IMG/VR virus record: IMGVR_UViG_3300044815_000115
Coordinates: 39,320 to 103,319 of that record
DNA: 64,000 nucleotides
Reading direction: 5' to 3' (one strand)
From: a virus
The notes beneath the pieces were generated by a model. That model made no database searches, was not told the origin of the DNA, and saw nothing but the letters and a program-made list of their open reading frames with translations. The stretch's first letter is position 1. Each line of letters opens with the position of its first letter. Shown here one piece after another: positions 30,117-62,445 of this stretch. The position numbers were made by a program, and so were the translations under genes.

Positions 30117-30674
30117 GTGGTCACGACAGGCCGAGGTCACGGGAACCAGCCCCGATCCGGCCGCGGACGCTTCGTCAAGAGCCTCGAAACGGCCAAGCGA
30201 GACGCCGAGGCGGCCCAACTCCGCGCCGAGGGCAAGACTTACGACCAGATCGCCGAAGCGCTCGACTTCAGTGACCGGTCGCTGGCCCGTCGATCTGTCG
30301 AACGCGCCCTCGCGGCAACCGTCCGCGAGCCTGCCGACGAGCTCCGTCAGCTCGAGCTGATCCGCCTCGACGCTCTCTGGGTCGAAGCCGTCAAGGTCAT
30401 GACCACCGAGCACATCACCGTCAACAACGGACGCGTGATCGAAGTCGACGGGGTGCCACTCAAGGACGACGGCCCGACCCTGTCCGCCATCGACCGCCTC
30501 CTGAAGATCATGGAACGGCGGGCGAAGCTGGTCGGACTCGACTCGGCCACGAAGGTCGAGGTGTTGAGTGTCGACGCCCTCGATCGCGAAATCGCCAAGC
30601 TCACCGCAGAGCTTGGCGGAGCTGAAGCTGATGAAGCTTCGGCAGTTGAAGGAACTCAAACAACGGAAAGCTGA
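30117..30674 (+). CDS. terS: terminase small subunit
   Basis: HTH (LRAEGKTYDQIAEAL), AIDRLLKIMERRAKLVGLD; precedes TerL. Confidence 0.85.
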   Translation: MVTTGRGHGNQPRSGRGRFVKSLETAKRDAEAAQLRAEGKTYDQIAEALDFSDRSLARRSVERALAATVREPADELRQLELIRLDALWVEAVKVMTTEHITVNNGRVIEVDGVPLKDDGPTLSAIDRLLKIMERRAKLVGLDSATKVEVLSVDALDREIAKLTAELGGAEADEASAVEGTQTTES

Positions 30675-32148
30675 ACGGGATCGCAAACTCGCGGCAATCG
30701 AGGCCAGTCGGTACGTCCGCGACCCGGCGGGTTGGGTTCAGGACAAGCTGTCCGAGCATCTGTGGAGCAAACAGCGAGAGATCGCCGAGTCGGTCCGGGA
30801 CAACCGGTACACCGCTGTCCAGTCTTGCCATGACGCCGGCAAGAGCTTTTGCGCCTCGCGCCTAGTCGCGTGGTGGCTCTCGGTCCACCCCGATGGGGAC
30901 GCGTTCGCAGTCACGACCGCGCCGACCGCGGCTCAGGTTTCGGCGATCCTGTGGCGTGAGATCCGTCGGGCGCACCGCAAGGGCGGCCTGCCCGGCTACA
31001 CCACCCAGGGTGCCGTCCCGGAGTGGAAGCTTGCCGACGGTGAGCTGATCGGCTACGGCCGCAAGCCCGCCGACGAGGACCAAGCCGCATTCCAGGGCAT
31101 CCACGCCCTGCACCCGCTCATCGTCGTCGACGAAGCCGGCGGCGTACCCAAGAACCTGTTCGACGCCGTGGACGCGCTGGCCACCAACGAGAACGCCCGC
31201 GTGCTTGCGATCGGCAACCCCGATGCGCCCTCCAGTCACTTCGCCAGCGTCTGCAAGCCCGGCTCCGGGTGGAACGTCATCCGGATCGACGGGCTGCAGA
31301 CCCCGAACATGACCGCTGAGGCGCTCGCCGAACTTCCTGAACTGGCGGACCTGTTCGCGCGGCTCGGTCTCGAGCCCGTCGACGAGGACGTGCCGGACAA
31401 CCTTCGGCCGCTGCTCCTTTCACCGCTGTGGGTGGCCGAGCGGATCCACCGCTGGGGTGTCGAGTCGCCGATCTTCACGGCGAAGGTCCGCGGCGAGTTC
31501 CCCGACATCGGCGAGGACGTCCTCATCCCACCGTCGTGGATCCGTGCCGCGCAGGAACGCACGCTGGACCCGGGGCCGTGGTCGGTACTGGGCGTGGACG
31601 TAGCCCGTTTCGGCTCGGACCGATCCGTATTCATGCTGCGTCGAGGGTCGGTCGCCCGCATGGTTGGCGACCACTCCAAGCAGGCGACGACCGTAACCAC
31701 CGGCCAGGTCATCGCGGCGAAGCGTGAATATGGCGTGGATGAGATCCGCGTTGACGGCGTCGGCGTCGGCGGCGGTGTTGTCGATCAGCTTCTCGAGCAG
31801 GGGCATGACGTCGTCGACATGCAAGCGGGTGGCGCCGCCATCGACAGTGAGCATTTCCTGAACGCCCGGGCTGAGTGGTACTGGGCACTGCGGGAACGGC
31901 TCGAGGCCGGCGACATGGATCTCGACCCAGCTGACGATGAACTCGCTGCCCAACTGGGCGCGATCAAGTACAAGTTCACGTCTCGCGGGCAGATCCAGAT
32001 TGAAAGCAAAGTCGATTCGAAAAAGAGAGGGCTTCCCTCACCGGACCGCGCTGACGCGTTGATGCTGACGGCTGGCAGGGTCGCACCACCCGATGACGTC
32101 GTCGAGGACGCTGAACACGACGAGTACACCATCGGCGCCGCGTACTGA
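30631..32148 (+). CDS. terL: terminase large subunit (alternative start 30568)
   Basis: SCHDAGKS, IVVDEA, IGNP, GVDVARFGSD, SPDRADAL. Confidence 0.95.
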   Translation: MKLRQLKELKQRKAERDRKLAAIEASRYVRDPAGWVQDKLSEHLWSKQREIAESVRDNRYTAVQSCHDAGKSFCASRLVAWWLSVHPDGDAFAVTTAPTAAQVSAILWREIRRAHRKGGLPGYTTQGAVPEWKLADGELIGYGRKPADEDQAAFQGIHALHPLIVVDEAGGVPKNLFDAVDALATNENARVLAIGNPDAPSSHFASVCKPGSGWNVIRIDGLQTPNMTAEALAELPELADLFARLGLEPVDEDVPDNLRPLLLSPLWVAERIHRWGVESPIFTAKVRGEFPDIGEDVLIPPSWIRAAQERTLDPGPWSVLGVDVARFGSDRSVFMLRRGSVARMVGDHSKQATTVTTGQVIAAKREYGVDEIRVDGVGVGGGVVDQLLEQGHDVVDMQAGGAAIDSEHFLNARAEWYWALRERLEAGDMDLDPADDELAAQLGAIKYKFTSRGQIQIESKVDSKKRGLPSPDRADALMLTAGRVAPPDDVVEDAEHDEYTIGAAY

Positions 32149-33845: not shown

Positions 33846-34919
33846 GTGGCGGTCACCCGGCATTCCCTGGCCCTGCTGCAGCAACTGCGGACCGAGGTCG
33901 GTGAGCTTGCCGACGACGCCGTCCGCCACGTCGCTGAGGCGTGGCTTGCCGCGTGGGAGAACCTCACCCCGCAATGGCAGGCGGCTGTCGCCGCCGCCGT
34001 CGACCAGGCCGCCCGATCGGGTACCTGGCCGTCGTCGTGGCAACTCGCCCGCATCCCCGAGGTCGCCTCCGCCGTGGCTGCGACAGAGCAGTCGTCGAAC
34101 GAACTCGGCGCGACCGTGGTCGAGGTGGCAGTCGCTGCGGCTGTCGGTGCTGTCGCGGTCACGGCCGCCGCGGAGCCGCTCATCCTCGCCTCGCAACTAC
34201 CGTCGTCGCTTGCTGCTGCAGCTCTGGCCGGTTTCCGGTCGAGGCTTCTACCCGGCCGACTCGACACTATCCGCGCCAGCACCCGCAACCGGGTCACCTC
34301 GCTGGTTCAGCCGCTTGCCGCCCAGGCGCTGTCCGCCGCGAAGCAGGCGCTGGTGCGCGGTGTCCCCATGGGAGACGACCCAGTCGCCGCGGGCAAGGGG
34401 ATACTCGGGCGACTTCAGGCGGCATTCTTCGCTGTGAGGGATCGGGCCATCAACGTGGCGCGAACCGAATCGCTCGATGCCATGCGCGCCACATCCGACT
34501 ACGTGCACGAGATCAACGCCGACTCGCTCGCCGGATGGACGTGGTGGGCGAGTCTGGGGCCGAACTGCTGTCCGGCGTGCTGGGCGCTGCACGGCACCTT
34601 CCATCCGCTGACCGAGGCTGGACCTGCAGATCACAATCAGGGCCGCTGTGTACGGCTGGTCCGACTCAAGTCCTGGTCGCAACTCGGTATCACCCAAACC
34701 GAGCCGGCCGATGTGCTTCCCGACGCGGAGGCGCAGTTCCGGAAGTTGTCGCTCACCGACCAACTCAAGGTCATGGGTCCGGCGCGCCACGAACTGTGGG
34801 CCTCGGGCGACATCGCCTGGACGGATTTGGCCGTGCTGAGGGGCACCCGCGGGTGGCGTGATTCCTACGTCCCGCGCACAGTCACGGACCTTCAACGGAT
34901 CTCCGGCCGCCGCAGCTGA
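33846..34919 (+). CDS. MuF-like minor head protein
   Basis: RAINVARTE..WTW..CPACWALHG..DHNQGRC. Confidence 0.85.
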   Translation: MAVTRHSLALLQQLRTEVGELADDAVRHVAEAWLAAWENLTPQWQAAVAAAVDQAARSGTWPSSWQLARIPEVASAVAATEQSSNELGATVVEVAVAAAVGAVAVTAAAEPLILASQLPSSLAAAALAGFRSRLLPGRLDTIRASTRNRVTSLVQPLAAQALSAAKQALVRGVPMGDDPVAAGKGILGRLQAAFFAVRDRAINVARTESLDAMRATSDYVHEINADSLAGWTWWASLGPNCCPACWALHGTFHPLTEAGPADHNQGRCVRLVRLKSWSQLGITQTEPADVLPDAEAQFRKLSLTDQLKVMGPARHELWASGDIAWTDLAVLRGTRGWRDSYVPRTVTDLQRISGRRS

Positions 34920-40882: not shown

Positions 40883-43333
40883 ATGGCGCGCTTGTGGTCT
40901 TCTGGCTTCGAACTCCAGTCGGCCACCGCTGGCATCGAGGTCGACACGGTCACCGGCACCCTGTCCATCTCGACGACGACCGTACGGTCCGGCGCGGCGG
41001 CGCTGCGGTGCAACCCGGCCGCGGCGACCGGGTACATCACCCACCGGTTCGCCCCCAACGCCATCCGCAACCAGTACATCCGCTTCTACGTCCGGTTCGC
41101 GAGCTTCCCGACAGCCGACTGCGACCTGTTCAACTGGTGGGACGGCACCGCCGGTTTCCCGTCGATCCGGTTCATCGCCGCCACATCAAAGCTCCAATGC
41201 CGCGACGGCACCCCGGCGAACGTCGGCTCGGCGTCGGCGACCCTGACGCTGAACACATGGTACCGCGTCGAAATGCAGTACAACGACACCACCGGCGACA
41301 CGGTCAACGCGTACCTGGACGGCACCATCTTCTGCTCGGCGGGTGTCGGCGGCGACATCGGCGGGCTCGGGCAGTTCCGCCTCGGCGTGATCACTTCGAC
41401 GACCGCCGACGTGTTCTTCGACGACATCGCGGTCAACGACGACACCGGCACCGCTCAGGCCGGCCTGCCCGGCTCAGGGAAGATCGTCCACCTGCTGCCC
41501 AACGCGGCAGGCGACAACAACGTGTGGGCCACCGCTGTCGGCGGCACAGCGGGAACAGCCAACAACTTCACCCGGGTTGACGAGATCGTCCCGGACGATG
41601 CGACCACCTACAACCAGACCACCGTCACCGGCACGACGAACACCGACGACTTCAACGTCACCGACAGTTCTACCGCCGGTGTCGGCGCGTCCGACACGAT
41701 CACCCTCGTCGGGGTGGGCTGCCGGTGCGGGAGTTCCGCGACGACTACGGCGAGCATCGTCACCCGGCTCAAAGGGCAGGCGTCGGGCACGACCACGGAG
41801 TCCGCGTCGATCTCCGTTGCGGTCGCCGCGTTCCGCACCGGCGGTGTGGTCGCGGCGAACACCCCGCAGCCGTGGGCGAACATCGTCGCCTACTCGAATC
41901 CGCAAACGTCCACGGCGTGGACGCCGACCACGCTCGACTCGATGCAGGTCGGCTACCGCACGAACGTCGCGCAGACGTCGGTGCGGCGGGTCACCACGAT
42001 GTGGGCACTCGTCGAGTACGTGCCGTCCACCGCAGTCTCCGCCAGCGCGGCGCTCGCCGTCACGGCGACGCTCGCCGCGGGTGTCACCGCGTCCCGGCCG
42101 GTCAGTGCAGCCCTCGCGGCTACGGCCACGCTGACTGCTGTTGCGGCAGGCGCGCGTCCGGCGGATGCGGCGCTGGCAGTCACCGCGACTCTCGCCGCCT
42201 CGGCAGTGGCTTCGCGACCGGCGGATGCCGCGCTCGCTGCGACCACAACCCTGACCGCCGCCTCGGCCGCGACCCGCCCCGCGGATGCCGCACTGGCGGT
42301 CACAACAACACTTACTGCCGTAGCCGCGCGCACCGCGGTCGGGACAGCCGCGCTCACTGTCACAGCGACCGTTTCGGCGGCAGCGGCGCTCAGCGCGGTG
42401 GGCTCGGCGGCGGTCGCGGTCACCGCCACCCTGGCGGCAGCGACCACAGCCGACCGGCCCGCAACGGCATCCCTCACCATTGCAGCCACCACGGCCGCGG
42501 CTGCGGCGCTCGGCGCTGTCGTGGCGGCGGCATTGCCGGTGACGGCAACACTCGCGGCAGCGGCGACCGCAACCCGCTCTGCGGATGCTGCGCTGACGAT
42601 CACAGCTGCGCTTGCAGCGGCAGCGGCGCGGACCGCCATCGGGGCTGCCCCGCTCAACGTGACGGTGACGGTTTCAGCGACCGCAGCGCTCGCCGCAGTG
42701 GGCGCGGCGACCCTCGCAGTAACCGCCGCCGTCGCGGCGGCAACGACCGCGGCCCGGCCCGCAGCCGCATCCCTCGCCGTCGCCGTCTCGGCCGCCACCT
42801 CCGCGACCGCCACGCTAGGCGCTGTTGTGACGGCCACGCTGCCGGTGACAGCGACACTCGCCGCAGCCTTGACAGTCAGCCGTCCCGCCCAGACCGCGCT
42901 CGCTGTGACCGCCGCATTGAACGCCGCATCCGCCCGCACCGCCGTGGCATCTGCCGCGCTACCGGTCACGGCGGCGCTGACGGGCGCAGCTACCGCCACC
43001 GGCGCGGGTGCCGGCGCGGACCTTGCGGTGACCGCCACCACGTCGGCCGCCGTCGTCGCCGTCAGGCCCGGTACGGCGGCCCTCACCGTCACCACGACCC
43101 TCACCGCGGCGGCAACCTCAATGGGTGCCGCTACTGCCGCCTTGGCTGTCACGGCGACCATGTCGGCTGCGGCTGTTACCACCGGCGGGACAGCGGTCGT
43201 CACCGGCGCCGCCACCGTCATTGGCGACCCGCGAACCGTGCAGGTGATCGGCGTGGCCCGGCCGTACACGCTCACCGCAGCCCAGCTCACCGCCACCGTC
43301 GCAGGTGACGCCTCCACCGGAGGGATCCGCTGA
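40883..43333 (+). CDS. lectin-like domains + Ala/Thr 20-aa repeat fibre protein
   Basis: N-term LamG/CBM-like (LNTWYRVE..FFDDIAVND); 19 tandem repeats. Confidence 0.75.
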   Translation: MARLWSSGFELQSATAGIEVDTVTGTLSISTTTVRSGAAALRCNPAAATGYITHRFAPNAIRNQYIRFYVRFASFPTADCDLFNWWDGTAGFPSIRFIAATSKLQCRDGTPANVGSASATLTLNTWYRVEMQYNDTTGDTVNAYLDGTIFCSAGVGGDIGGLGQFRLGVITSTTADVFFDDIAVNDDTGTAQAGLPGSGKIVHLLPNAAGDNNVWATAVGGTAGTANNFTRVDEIVPDDATTYNQTTVTGTTNTDDFNVTDSSTAGVGASDTITLVGVGCRCGSSATTTASIVTRLKGQASGTTTESASISVAVAAFRTGGVVAANTPQPWANIVAYSNPQTSTAWTPTTLDSMQVGYRTNVAQTSVRRVTTMWALVEYVPSTAVSASAALAVTATLAAGVTASRPVSAALAATATLTAVAAGARPADAALAVTATLAASAVASRPADAALAATTTLTAASAATRPADAALAVTTTLTAVAARTAVGTAALTVTATVSAAAALSAVGSAAVAVTATLAAATTADRPATASLTIAATTAAAAALGAVVAAALPVTATLAAAATATRSADAALTITAALAAAAARTAIGAAPLNVTVTVSATAALAAVGAATLAVTAAVAAATTAARPAAASLAVAVSAATSATATLGAVVTATLPVTATLAAALTVSRPAQTALAVTAALNAASARTAVASAALPVTAALTGAATATGAGAGADLAVTATTSAAVVAVRPGTAALTVTTTLTAAATSMGAATAALAVTATMSAAAVTTGGTAVVTGAATVIGDPRTVQVIGVARPYTLTAAQLTATVAGDASTGGIR
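42041..43190 (+). repeat. 19 x ~60-bp coding repeats (consensus ADAALAVTATLAAAATATRP)
   Basis: visible in translation, with 5-repeat super-period. Confidence 0.85.
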
Positions 43334-56697: not shown

Positions 56698-57645
56698 ATG
56701 ACCCAGTCGACCGAATACCCGGACCTGAAGTGGATGCCGCCGAAAGCATTCGGCACCGGCCGCGACGGCAAGGCCGTCCGGTACATCGTCATCCACTACA
56801 CCGCAGGCGCCGAACGGAACACGTCGGCCGAGGACGGCGCGGTCTACGACCAGAACCGCACCGACGGCACGTCGACGCACTACTTCGTCGACTCCAACAG
56901 CGTCGTGCAGTGCGTGCTGACGAAGAACCGGGGTAACGCCGCACGGACCAAGGGCAACCGGTTGGGTATCCAGTACGAGCTGTGCGGCACGGTGCAGACC
57001 CGGGCGCAGTGGCTCGACGCGGCCAGCCTGCCGACGCTGAAGAACGCCGCCCGGCAGGTGGCCCGGGACTGCAAGAAGTACGGGATCCCGGTGCGGCGGC
57101 TGTCCGTCGCCGAGACCCGCCGGGCCTGGGACGAGTTCCCGGCCGGGCCGAGGGGCATCGTCGGGCACGTCGACTGTACGAACGCCTACCCGGAAGACGG
57201 CGGCGACCACACCGACCCGGGAACGCAGTTCCCATGGGATGTGTTCCTGGACCTCGTCCAGGCCGAACTCACACCGAAGGAGCCAGACGTGAACCTCACC
57301 GACAAGGTTGGCAGCAAGGCGTACCCGGCCCGCACCGTCGGCAACGTCCTCAACGACCTGGAAGGGCTACGCGACACCCTCATCGGCGATGCCACCGGCA
57401 CCAAGGCCGCAGCCGTCAAGGCGGGCTCACCGGTCGGCAAGCTCATGGCGATGCCTGCCCAGCTCGACACCATCGGCAAAGCACTGCTCGCCGCGGTCGC
57501 CGCCAGCAAAGGTGCCGACGTCGACGAAGACGCCATCGCCGCCGGTGTCCTCGCCGGGCTCACCCCCGAGAAGATCGCCGCGTGGATTCCCGAAGGCGTC
57601 GCGCAAGAGGTCGTCGACCTGCTCGCCGCCCGCCTGCAAAGCTGA
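56698..57645 (+). CDS. endolysin, N-acetylmuramoyl-L-alanine amidase (Amidase_2)
   Basis: IVIHYT, STHYFVD, IQYELCG, VGH, DHTDPG. Confidence 0.9.
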   Translation: MTQSTEYPDLKWMPPKAFGTGRDGKAVRYIVIHYTAGAERNTSAEDGAVYDQNRTDGTSTHYFVDSNSVVQCVLTKNRGNAARTKGNRLGIQYELCGTVQTRAQWLDAASLPTLKNAARQVARDCKKYGIPVRRLSVAETRRAWDEFPAGPRGIVGHVDCTNAYPEDGGDHTDPGTQFPWDVFLDLVQAELTPKEPDVNLTDKVGSKAYPARTVGNVLNDLEGLRDTLIGDATGTKAAAVKAGSPVGKLMAMPAQLDTIGKALLAAVAASKGADVDEDAIAAGVLAGLTPEKIAAWIPEGVAQEVVDLLAARLQS

Positions 57646-59337: not shown

Positions 59338-59400
59338 GCTCCGATCGTCTCACCCAGGCAGAGCCGGATATGGCCACCGCAACTCACGAAGGAGAACAAC

Positions 59401-59625
59401 ATGATCACCGCCAAGGTGAAGTGCTACCAGAAGACCGAGAGCGGCGTGGGCGACGCCCGGCAGGTGCAGGTCGACTTCAACGCCGACTACAACGACGGCC
59501 GCAACAAGGAGTGGTCGCTGTACACCCCGGCGCTGTCGCTGTCGATGACGCTCAAGGGCGACGTCGCCGACCGCTTCGAGATCGGCAAGGCGTACACGCT
59601 CCAGTTCGTCGGCGAGGAGGACTGA
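59401..59625 (+). CDS. small beta-rich phage protein
   Basis: AAGGAG SD; TAKVKC..NKEWS.YTP..L.M..FEIGKAY...F. Confidence 0.75.
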   Translation: MITAKVKCYQKTESGVGDARQVQVDFNADYNDGRNKEWSLYTPALSLSMTLKGDVADRFEIGKAYTLQFVGEED

Positions 59626-59638
59626 CCGCTCCCCAAGC

Positions 59639-59727
59639 GTGCCCGGCCCGACCTCGAAGTCGTTAACCAGGCGGCTGAGGGTAAGCAGCGGGGGCCTTCG
59701 CGAGTTCGACTCTCGTCGGGTACACCA
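59639..59727 (+). ncRNA. non-canonical tRNA-like RNA
   Basis: 7-bp acceptor GTGCCCG/CGGGTAC, A discriminator, encoded CCA, T-arm GCGAG-TTCGACT-CTCGT; no canonical anticodon arm. Confidence 0.7.
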
Positions 59728-59754: not shown

Positions 59755-60003
59755 CTAGAGGATCGGCCCGTCGGCCTGCGCGTTGCGTTCCAGCCGCCAC
59801 CGCTGCCAGTCGGCCACCTGCTGCGCCCGCACCTCGTCCGCGCCCGCCGCCCGCAGCAAGTCCACCACCACCGCGAACCGGTCCTCAGTTTCCGCCCGTA
59901 CCAGATACGCGCCCAGCACGTGACCCAACACCAGCGGATCCCGACTCACCGCGTGCACCACAGCGACCGCATCATCCACGGGGATCGGTCCGGCACTGGA
60001 CAT
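59755..60003 (-). CDS. hypothetical protein
   Basis: GGAG SD; helical. Confidence 0.5.
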   Translation of the reverse strand: MSSAGPIPVDDAVAVVHAVSRDPLVLGHVLGAYLVRAETEDRFAVVVDLLRAAGADEVRAQQVADWQRWRLERNAQADGPIL

Positions 60004-60056
60004 CAGCCGCTCCACCGTCCCCGACACGCGAGCATCGGCGAGGCGCTGCCCGCCGG

Positions 60057-60323
60057 TCAGCTTCGGGAGACGCACGAGGGCTCCGTGATCTCGGCCCAGC
60101 CGCCCGGGCGGATCCAACGCTCCACGGTCACGCACGCCGCCCGCTCATGCCAGGCAAGCCACGACCTGGTTCCGCTGCGCCCGGACCGCTGCACCCACCA
60201 GCCGCCCGCGAACGTGCCCATCGCGATCCGCTCGTAGGTGACGGCCGCCGGATCGCCACGGCCCCACGCCCGCAACTCGGCCACCTCGGTCTGCCCATCC
60301 AAGTCGATGCGCTGATACCCCAT
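60057..60323 (-). CDS. hypothetical Trp-rich protein
   Basis: -10 TACCGT just upstream of ATG. Confidence 0.5.
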   Translation of the reverse strand: MGYQRIDLDGQTEVAELRAWGRGDPAAVTYERIAMGTFAGGWWVQRSGRSGTRSWLAWHERAACVTVERWIRPGGWAEITEPSCVSRS

Positions 60324-61055: not shown

Positions 61056-61466
61056 TCAGTAATCGCGGGCGTCTTCCCACCGCTCTACGGCGTCCTGCGA
61101 CTGGTCGCGAACCTGCTGGTCGTCCAGCGTGTAGGCGGGGTCCAGGCCGGTGTCCGCGTCGGCACCGTTCCAGACCGCGATGCGCCACGGGCCGCCGTCG
61201 AGGAGGTTCTGGTTGGAGTAGACGTCGAGCGCGACCTGCTCGGCACTGCCGTTGTCGGTGACGGTCTCGGCCGGGTGCATGGCCTGCCAGATCGTCCCGT
61301 CCTCATTGCCCGCCTGGATCTCGACGGTGTAGGCAGTCACGGGGACGATGCGAGCGGCCGGCTTGCCGTTACGGGTGAGGATGATGTTGGCGCCCTGCTG
61401 GACGCTGGTGACGAGGTCGCCAAGCGTTTTCCGGGCCTCTTCGATTCCTATGTTTTTGCTGCTCAT
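61056..61466 (-). CDS. Phd/YefM-family DNA-binding domain fused to unknown C-terminal domain
   Basis: IGIEEARKTLGDLV..IILTRNGKPAARIVPV. Confidence 0.8.
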   Translation of the reverse strand: MSSKNIGIEEARKTLGDLVTSVQQGANIILTRNGKPAARIVPVTAYTVEIQAGNEDGTIWQAMHPAETVTDNGSAEQVALDVYSNQNLLDGGPWRIAVWNGADADTGLDPAYTLDDQQVRDQSQDAVERWEDARDY

Positions 61467-61473
61467 GTGCATA

Positions 61474-61517
61474 ACCTTAAGGTCTGTGAGGACGCTCGTC
61501 AAGGGAGACCTTAAGGT
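61474..61517 (-). promoter_or_regulatory. promoter with two ACCTTAAGGT palindromic operators
   Basis: 61474-61483 and 61508-61517; TTGACG..TAAGGT on minus strand. Confidence 0.75.
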
Positions 61518-61786
61518 TTCTCTGTTTCAGACTCAGGCCCACCGGGACCTACGTCGAGGTGCGGCCGGTTCTTCCCGCGACCCGCCCGCGCGCACCGGAT
61601 CAGCCACCGGCCGAACCGCTCCGCGTCAGCCGCGGACACCCGCACTGTCACCCCCGCCCCGTTGTACGCGTTCACCCAGATACGGCCGTCGTCGCGGACA
61701 CCACCGGTCAGCTCACCGCCGTCATGCCGGCTCCCCACCCGCAACCGGTCCGGCATCTGATCCTCGGGGGGCTCGGGCGCGCTCAT
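61511..61786 (-). CDS. hypothetical protein
   Basis: ATGA-coupled to GIY-YIG gene. Confidence 0.55.
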   Translation of the reverse strand: MSAPEPPEDQMPDRLRVGSRHDGGELTGGVRDDGRIWVNAYNGAGVTVRVSAADAERFGRWLIRCARAGRGKNRPHLDVGPGGPESETEKP

Positions 61787-62445
61787 CGCGACCACCGCCT
61801 CAACTTGCGGAACCGGCGCCGCCACAGCCGCCACGAATCCGGCCTGCGCAACACGCCCCACAGCAGCAACACCGTCGACGCGACACAAGCGCTGAGGGCG
61901 TCCGTCGACATCGGCCAATGCCCGTGACGGGCCATCGCACCCCACCCGACGGACGTCAGCAGCACCCACGCAGTCGACCACAAGCACGCCTTCACTTGCC
62001 ACGGACTCCACGTCCGCCGCACGGACACCACCGGCGACGACTGCCGTACACCGACCGACGCACGGTCGCCCGGATGCACCCAGCGTGGCTTGCCCCTCGC
62101 CGCATCCCGGGCCCTACGCTGCCGGATCGCATCCGGCGGGATGATCCGATGCGGATTCCGCTCATTGCCCTTCACGTTGTACAGCGGCATCTCGGAGCGG
62201 ATCGCCTGCGCCTCAGCCTCGAGCACCGCGCCCTTACCCGCGAACACCCGCGGATCCCGCTCCCAACGCGTCACCGTGTCGATCCACGGCTGCACATCGA
62301 CGTGCTCCATCAACCGCTCGAACGGCCGGCGCACCGTCTCCCCGACGTAGCCGAGAACCTCCTCCCCGGTTTCGGGATGCTCAACCCAGAACCGGTACAG
62401 GCGACAGTCCCGCAGGTCCGTGGTAGACGACAGGGTCGCGGTCAC
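61783..62445 (-). CDS. GIY-YIG nuclease with two C-terminal TM helices
   Basis: LYRF..GYVGET..R..EH..W..AEAQAIRSE.PLYN + hydrophobic tail. Confidence 0.75.
   Translation of the reverse strand: MTATLSSTTDLRDCRLYRFWVEHPETGEEVLGYVGETVRRPFERLMEHVDVQPWIDTVTRWERDPRVFAGKGAVLEAEAQAIRSEMPLYNVKGNERNPHRIIPPDAIRQRRARDAARGKPRWVHPGDRASVGVRQSSPVVSVRRTWSPWQVKACLWSTAWVLLTSVGWGAMARHGHWPMSTDALSACVASTVLLLWGVLRRPDSWRLWRRRFRKLRRWSR

Follow-up and report, generated by a model that had tools for sequence, protein, structure and literature searches.

A candidate actinophage RNA gene built from the upper half of a tRNA without a decoding arm

Phages carry transfer RNAs (tRNAs) and, rarely, transfer-messenger RNAs (tmRNAs). 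Can a phage RNA that has the acceptor stem and T arm of a tRNA, and nothing with which to read a codon, be a gene in its own right, and what might such an RNA do? The question is raised by an 89-nt element at positions 59639..59727 (+ strand) of a 64 kb window, the last 64 kb of the virus record IMGVR_UViG_3300044815_000115 (103,319 bases); coordinates refer to this window unless another sequence is named. A first-pass annotation had described the element as a non-canonical tRNA-like RNA with alanine identity elements, directly behind the gene for a small beta-rich protein, and had suggested that RNA and protein form a pair that mimics tRNA or tmRNA. We propose, from sequence evidence and with roughly even confidence, that the element is a selectively maintained actinophage RNA gene consisting of a tRNA upper half only, whose product would act in trans as a mimic or competitor.

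An upper half without decoding arms and its one homologue

The upper half can be read directly from the sequence. The 5´ acceptor strand GUGCCCG (59639..59645, +) pairs at 7/7 positions with the 3´ strand CGGGUAC (59717-59723, +), the first three pairs being G1-C72, U2-A71 and G3.U70, and is completed by the discriminator A73 (59724) and an encoded CCA (59725-59727). The T arm, GCGAG-UUCGACU-CUCGU with a canonical T loop, occupies 59700..59716 (+). All of these features, among them the alanine determinants G3.U70 and A73, had been listed in the first-pass annotation, and each was found in place. A detector demanding 7/7 acceptor pairs, a 5-bp T stem with G53-C61 and a TTCRANN loop yielded 0.06 matches per Markov-shuffled record, even without demanding A73 and CCA. 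Given the presence of the features and this background, the tRNA-like upper half at 59639-59727 is real and beyond chance. It has the 7-bp acceptor, 5-bp T stem, UUCRANY-type T loop and discriminator by which a tRNA upper half is recognized.

Between the two sides of this upper half lies a variable middle of 54 nt (59646..59699, +), in which, according to the earlier description, alternative hairpins stand where the D and anticodon arms would be. Both named hairpins are present. ARAGORN reported 0 tRNA or tmRNA genes in the window or in the whole 103,319-base record, and Rfam 15 gave zero matches for the element at the gathering threshold; neither tool called it a tRNA or tmRNA. Under relaxed Rfam settings, the sole match was to tRNA-Sec, at 17 bits and E 1.2 (threshold 47 bits).

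Searching with a 23-mer that covers the T arm and the 3´ acceptor strand, we found one actinobacterial genome, that of Virgisporangium ochraceum, among ~185,000 species; the remaining matches were tRNA-Arg(CCU) genes of Bacilli. The Virgisporangium copy lies inside a prophage, just upstream of a helix-turn-helix (TerS-like) gene and TerL, and is flanked by co-directional genes rather than placed at an operon end. Homology between the two copies begins exactly at G1 and extends to two bases past A73, with unrelated flanks. These bounds and the scores of a covariance model, R1 (108 bits on the element, 102 bits on the Virgisporangium copy), mark the 89 nt as the entire conserved unit. Identical in both copies are the first 12 nt, the block CGGGGGCC preceding the T arm, and 26 nt comprising the T arm, the acceptor strand, A73 and a C; the Virgisporangium copy continues after A73 with CGA, without an encoded CCA. 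All divergent positions and indels fall in the middle, with conserved ends on either side. There, about half of ~38 nt differ and at least two indels are needed, compared with 0 differences at 46 positions in the aligned blocks of the upper half and adjoining sequence. The interiors are significantly alike, as 0/2000 shuffles scored as well. With blocks that are 100% identical, a middle changed at about half of its positions and unrelated flanks, the comparison points to selection on the upper half rather than to neutral decay.

Both homologues lack the lower arms of a canonical tRNA (Rfam RF00005), namely the D stem with G18G19 in its loop and the 5-bp anticodon stem whose 7-nt loop has U33 and R37. 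Since neither copy has a D stem or a 7-nt U33 anticodon loop, the RNA, as read from the two sequences, cannot decode codons. Unconstrained folding of the element gave z = -0.87 relative to shuffled sequence, i.e. no extra stability, and the minimum-energy form was a rod without the T arm; the tRNA shape is backed by the conservation pattern, not by thermodynamics alone. When the acceptor and T arm were fixed, the same three-way-junction layout was obtained for both homologues. In the element, the predicted middle arm consists of GCCC/GGGC beside the acceptor, CCUC/GAGG, and AGUCGUU/GGCGGCU closed by the loop AACCA; in Virgisporangium, it consists of CCCG/CGGG, GGACCA/UGGUCU and CGG/CCG, with a loop containing ACCAA. 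The CCUC/GAGG helix of the element can slip by one base to ACCU/GGGU, and in the slipped register a U.G pair in the element corresponds to an A-U pair in Virgisporangium, which is anecdotal with two sequences. U33 is missing from the apical loops of the two copies, UUAACCAGG and ACACCAAGG. The Rfam tRNA-Sec model picks a class-II-like fold whose long variable arm is GAGGG/CCUUC; this alternative is less well kept in the homologue. A single irregular arm is the most likely predicted fold of the middle, tentatively so with two sequences.

Wider searches added no member to the family. Pattern scans of IMG/VR gave no further homologue, the 22 matches of the loosest pattern being ordinary phage tRNAs or chance, and a pattern scan of JGI metagenomes returned 33 loci, none related to the element. 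Some of these metagenome loci were ordinary tRNAs with GTGCCCGGCC in front of them; others were a duplicated tRNA-Gly 3´ half and a soil family of ~20 contigs. Model R1, run on 302 actinobacterial genomes and 17 TerL-related loci, recovered only true tRNAs, the seed and other tRNA-like families, and blastn against GenBank phages returned only the T arms of ordinary tRNAs. We rejected the ~20 soil contigs as relatives of the element: what they carry is an archaeal tRNA with an intron, and its true 5´ end is further upstream. The contigs L030, L035-L045 and similar (soil metagenome, ~51% GC) hold a tRNA gene with an intron-like insertion that ARAGORN missed. Its true acceptor, AGCCCGG/CCGGGCU, begins ~35 nt upstream of the matched GTGCCCGGCC, and the gene is probably archaeal, Nitrososphaeria-like.

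Relation to the tRNA-like domain of tmRNA

An RNA with an alanine-type end (G3.U70, A73, CCA), a T arm and no anticodon also recalls full-length tmRNA (SsrA), from which the element differs in having no tag reading frame, pseudoknots or signature motifs of the tRNA-like domain (TLD). Just 54 nt separate its halves, and both the ARAGORN tmRNA search and the Rfam tmRNA models were negative. A closer parallel is 'Mycobacterium phage DS6A (TLD only)', an entry in the list of Hudson, Lau and Williams (2014; PMC4131195), who report that tmRNA is strongly inhibited by a similar molecule, which may titrate SmpB. By blastn, we found that DS6A carries a member of a TLD-only family immediately behind its lysis cassette (L162:3481-3563), 10 nt past the stop of gp33, the last small gene of the cassette; this DS6A copy is unannotated in GenBank.

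The same family emerged from the terminase side. TerL-relatives of the Virgisporangium prophage have odd tRNA-like genes in the same pre-terminase slot, and those at L063:1503-1583(+) and L117:3158-3238(-), in two actinobacterial prophages, are TLD-only copies of ~82 nt for which ARAGORN made no call. A motif scan located the family in 40 IMG/VR contigs (L122-L161). Its members are built, in order, of GGGNNNN, GAAGGUUUCGAC, a helix closed by GAAAGCCGCAYGCGGAAC, GGAC, the T arm and NNNNUCC-A; the P2 helix is capped by GAAAGCCGCAYGCGGA, and there is no tag frame. Across 29 distinct sequences, 94.7% of cells pair and 14/23 pairs have changed in both partners, and neither shuffles nor slid registers came near the real score. 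G1-C72, G2-C71, G3.U70 and A73 are invariant in 41/41 copies extracted, those at L063 and L117 included. The TLD-only family is the tRNA-like domain of tmRNA alone, with nothing else attached, and among its copies just that of DS6A seems to have been published (PMC4131195).

The element shares much of this design. Each is an RNA of ~80-90 nt, carried by phages, that has a 7-bp acceptor, G3.U70, A73, a canonical T arm with the T stem GCGAG/CUCGY, and no anticodon arm. Both are found in the slot behind the lysis cassette, 10-13 nt past the stop of a small gene, and prophage copies of both kinds sit in the slot before the terminase genes. The element differs, however, in lacking the GGNUUCGAC D-loop analogue, the GGAC linker, G2-C71 and the GAAAGCCGCAYGCGGA cap, and in having a middle of 54 nt rather than the 46-48 nt of the family. 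At the corresponding places it has GCCCGACCUCGAAG and CUUC, not GGNUUCGAC and GGAC (NNAC), and the Virgisporangium copy does not even have UCGA at the GGNUUCGAC place. Pair 2-71 is U-A in the element and G-C in the family; G1-C72, G3.U70 and A73 match. The TLD-only covariance model gave the element 22.6 bits, inside the ordinary tRNA range of 12-31 bits. With neither GGNUUCGAC nor GGAC, with U2-A71 and with this score, we rejected membership in the TLD-only family. Judged by sequence, the element is a separate family with the same design and genomic slots as the TLD-only tmRNA, a new two-member family of anticodon-less tRNA mimic with one brief published precedent, DS6A.

Two further tRNA-like genes were noted beside terminase genes. 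At L106:3118-3187(-), upstream of a related terminase, a TLD-like RNA ending in ACCA has two acceptor mismatches (GGAGCAG/CCGCGCC), perhaps as a TLD-only copy in decay. The other, an odd tRNA with a 7-bp anticodon stem, C33 for U33 and no long variable arm, occupies the pre-terminase slot upstream of TerL on two contigs of one actinobacterial genome (L120:26-107 and L121:3142-3223); ARAGORN calls it tRNA-Ser(GGA).

The upstream protein gene

The element starts 13 nt after the TGA stop of an open reading frame for a 74-aa protein, P0001 (59401..59625, +), with the Shine-Dalgarno sequence GAAGGAG (59388..59394, +) seven bases before its ATG. Reading frame, ribosome-binding site and spacer agree with the earlier description, as does the beta-rich character: AlphaFold2 gives, with confidence, a model of five strands (mean pLDDT 88.7). 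P0001 matched no Pfam family and just one PHROG, of unknown function; >200 clusters of homologues occur in metagenomes, and close homologues are 67-88% identical. Fold searches returned the generic OB-like barrels DUF2500, Mop, eS28 and SSB (Foldseek E >= 0.05, VIA Z <= 5.9). By its model, P0001 is a small OB-like beta barrel. The first-pass annotation had drawn an analogy to SmpB, which these results do not bear out, as there is no Pfam match, the barrel is generic with a best Z of 5.9, and SmpB was not among the fold matches listed.

Could RNA and protein nonetheless form a dedicated ribonucleoprotein, with P0001 as an SmpB-like RNA chaperone? The two genes lie close together on the same strand, OB-like barrels frequently bind nucleic acids, and aberrant tRNA-like RNAs follow P0001 homologues in two Arthrobacter phages. 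In GlobiWarming, an unannotated D-armless tRNA-like RNA begins 16 nt after gene 71, the P0001 homologue (L081:1702-1768, ON970561 about 42053-42119), with the acceptor GGGCUGA/UCAGCCC, a following A, a canonical T arm and the hairpin loop UAACCACC; it overlaps the annotated 44-codon 'gene 72', which may be a false call. In Hestia, gene 88 (L163:1148-1223), annotated 'tRNA-OTHER / Undet', lies 38 nt after the homologue; its acceptor stem and its D and T arms are normal, and a usable anticodon arm is missing. Three lineages thus pair a P0001-type protein with three different non-decoding tRNA-like RNAs, and the element and the GlobiWarming RNA have UAACCA in common in their apical loops. Against a dedicated particle, the middles of the three RNAs are not homologous, the fold has no specific likeness to SmpB, and a preference of both genes for operon ends could account for the adjacency. 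A tRNA-like RNA was found near P0001 homologues in 0/44 IMG/VR loci, in none of four more loci and not in most Arthrobacter phages. Conversely, searches of the Virgisporangium genome and of the surroundings of 47 TLD-only or related loci turned up no P0001 homologue. We give the ribonucleoprotein little credence. P0001 is probably co-transcribed with the RNA, yet is not its conserved partner, and the adjacency may reflect a shared operon-end preference or a loose functional link, not a conserved module. Of the protein-RNA pair proposed in the first-pass annotation, the mimic part stands, given G3.U70, A73, the missing decoding arm, the conservation and the DS6A precedent; the obligate pair does not, as the genome with the sole RNA homologue lacks the protein and 44 viral loci with the protein lack a tRNA-like RNA.

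Other structures were seen behind homologues of the 74-aa gene. In Arthrobacter phage Popper (L166:315-443), a long closing stem, GUGCCU...AGGCAC, has no T loop, and its 3´ region begins with GUGCCUGGC, like the element studied here. In Correa and Mudcat (L164/L165:286-390), the closing stem is GUACCAACUCA...UGAGUUGGUAU, again with no T loop.

Proposed function, rival explanations and phage context

What would an RNA of this kind do? We envisage that one late transcript covers the 74-aa gene and, at its end, the RNA, that RNase P would cut at G1 to free an RNA ending in ACCA in which a fast-changing irregular arm replaces the D and anticodon arms, and that host alanyl-tRNA synthetase would charge this RNA, less well than tRNA-Ala. 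In trans, the RNA would then compete with tRNA or tmRNA for a host factor that recognizes their acceptor/T-arm end. Such a role has been proposed for the DS6A TLD-only tmRNA, which has the same position behind lysis genes. As to charging, alanyl-tRNA synthetase is known to charge minihelices, and the bacterial alanine identity set is A73, G2-C71, G3.U70 and G4-C69 (PMC9976931). The element holds A73 and the major determinant G3.U70, so that charging is plausible, and would probably be weaker than that of tRNA-Ala because pairs 2-71 and 4-69 differ from the bacterial consensus. A more specific version, in which the alanylated RNA is a minimal competitor of tmRNA or tRNA-Ala that jams trans-translation or another Ala-tRNA-dependent step late in infection, with P0001 as its SmpB-like carrier, seems to us quite unlikely. 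If true, it would be a second, independently evolved phage solution beside the DS6A-type TLD-only tmRNA.

Several points weigh against a trans-acting mimic. With two members in the family, structure and selection hang on one comparison, and a recombinational swap of the middle could also give identical ends and a divergent middle. U2-A71 and C4-G69 depart from the G2-C71 and G4-C69 of the bacterial alanine set. The motifs that define the tmRNA TLD are absent and the TLD-only model scores the element no higher than ordinary tRNAs, so SmpB binding cannot be assumed.

The main rival is that the element acts in cis, as a processing or stability 't-element' at the 3´ end of the late transcript, the freed RNA having no job. 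A tRNA-shaped fold could be a cutting signal for RNase P or RNase Z or a block to 3´ exonucleases, and the element lies 13 nt past the P0001 stop and immediately ahead of a convergent gene, a spot that calls for a terminator and has none predicted; our promoter and terminator scan near the element gave nothing useful, the sigma-70 consensus suiting actinobacteria poorly. P0001 homologues elsewhere are followed at the same spot by plain hairpins or other aberrant tRNA-like RNAs, and the DS6A element likewise lies 10 nt past a stop codon. The t-elements of plant mitochondria, mascRNA and YrlA are indeed non-decoding tRNA-shaped modules recognized by tRNA-processing enzymes; they differ from the element in having no encoded aminoacylation identity, and YrlA has a Ro-binding stem and adjoins rsr, while the element has no Rfam match. 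A pure cutting signal needs no A73, encoded CCA, G3.U70 or perfect T loop. The T loop is nonetheless kept 100% identical across two otherwise unrelated phage contexts, and the Virgisporangium copy sits between co-directional genes. We consider a purely cis-acting role unlikely, although less so than the other alternatives.

The remaining explanations make the element a tRNA or the relic of one. It might be a decaying tRNA pseudogene, for example of a class II tRNA-Leu, without present function. Actinobacterial and phage class II tRNA-Leu genes resemble it in the acceptor GUGCCCG/CGGGYAC, A73, the UUCGACU T loop and a length of ~85-89 nt, and the middle looks scrambled; the tRNA-Leu(CAG) of Micromonosporaceae, with the acceptor GUGCCCG/CGGGCAC, A73 and the UUCGACU T loop, may be its ancestor. 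However, the element lacks the D stem and anticodon loop and has G3.U70 for G3-C70, nothing of tRNA-Leu is recognizable in its middle (92% of shuffles score at least as high), and 0 differences at 46 upper-half positions are hard to square with neutral decay when the middle differs at ~50%, which makes a pseudogene improbable. Even less probable is an exotically folded RNA that still decodes, for example as an allo-tRNA, a tRNA-Sec-like RNA or a quadruplet decoder. In its favour, the tRNA-Sec model aligns over the full length, the sequence would allow acceptor/T stems of 9/3 or 8/4, and the loops have 8-9 nt. But the 17 bits of that alignment are far under the 47-bit threshold, neither copy has a loop with U33 and purine 37, and the candidate loops differ between the copies. 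Finally, partial tRNAs in phages are usually the cores of attachment (att) sites, and one of the metagenome families described above, the duplicated tRNA-Gly 3´ half, is exactly such a case. In the element, both acceptor strands are present and conserved, and the same 3´ end occurs in no actinobacterial tRNA gene among the ~185,000 species genomes. No repeat of the element was found elsewhere in the record, and a tyrosine integrase lies outside the window at record 34.1-35.5 kb, 65 kb away, adjoined by a tRNA-Met(CAT) 3´ half that runs from the anticodon stem to CCA (record 34060-34110(-), ~5 kb before the window start). Because the integrase and tRNA-Met 3´ half lie elsewhere and the element is unrepeated, it is not the att site, and we exclude that reading, giving a tRNA fragment left by integration the least chance of all.

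With the element, actinophages have a second, unrelated sequence family of the same design as the TLD-only tmRNA, in the same genomic slot. In print, non-decoding tRNA upper halves in phages amount to a single sentence on DS6A. In the element, only the end that faces synthetases and RNase P appears to be under selection. The element and the 40-plus TLD-only copies are testable candidates for effects on ribosome rescue, tRNA-dependent enzymes and tRNA-targeting defences, and they include one from a phage that infects Mycobacterium tuberculosis.

The surrounding genes place the element in a temperate actinophage of high-GC soil bacteria. The large terminase (30568-32148) has its top GenBank relatives in Streptomyces and Arthrobacter phages, at ~43% identity. 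Upstream of the element, an endolysin (Amidase_2 by Pfam; 56698..57645, +) marks the lysis cassette. As a convergent 126-aa phage gene with a match to phrog_19199 (59755..60135, -) comes next, the rightward late transcription unit ends with the element, which follows the lysis genes and faces that gene. The tRNA-Met(CAT) 3´ half, in record 34060-34169(-), is the att site of this prophage, and with no intact tRNA-Met in the record, the other prophage end is beyond the contig; host or other DNA probably makes up record positions 1-34 kb. In the metagenome contigs L031, L032, L034, L038 and L046, a tRNA-Gly(CCC) 3´ half is duplicated ~1.3 kb downstream of the intact gene, an arrangement that resembles the att repeat of a tiny integrated element. 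The leftward genes to the right of the element carry PHROG matches; those at 61783-62445(-) and 61056-61502(-) match phage endonuclease PHROGs (E 3e-7), and there is one weak match to an antitoxin PHROG (E 0.003).

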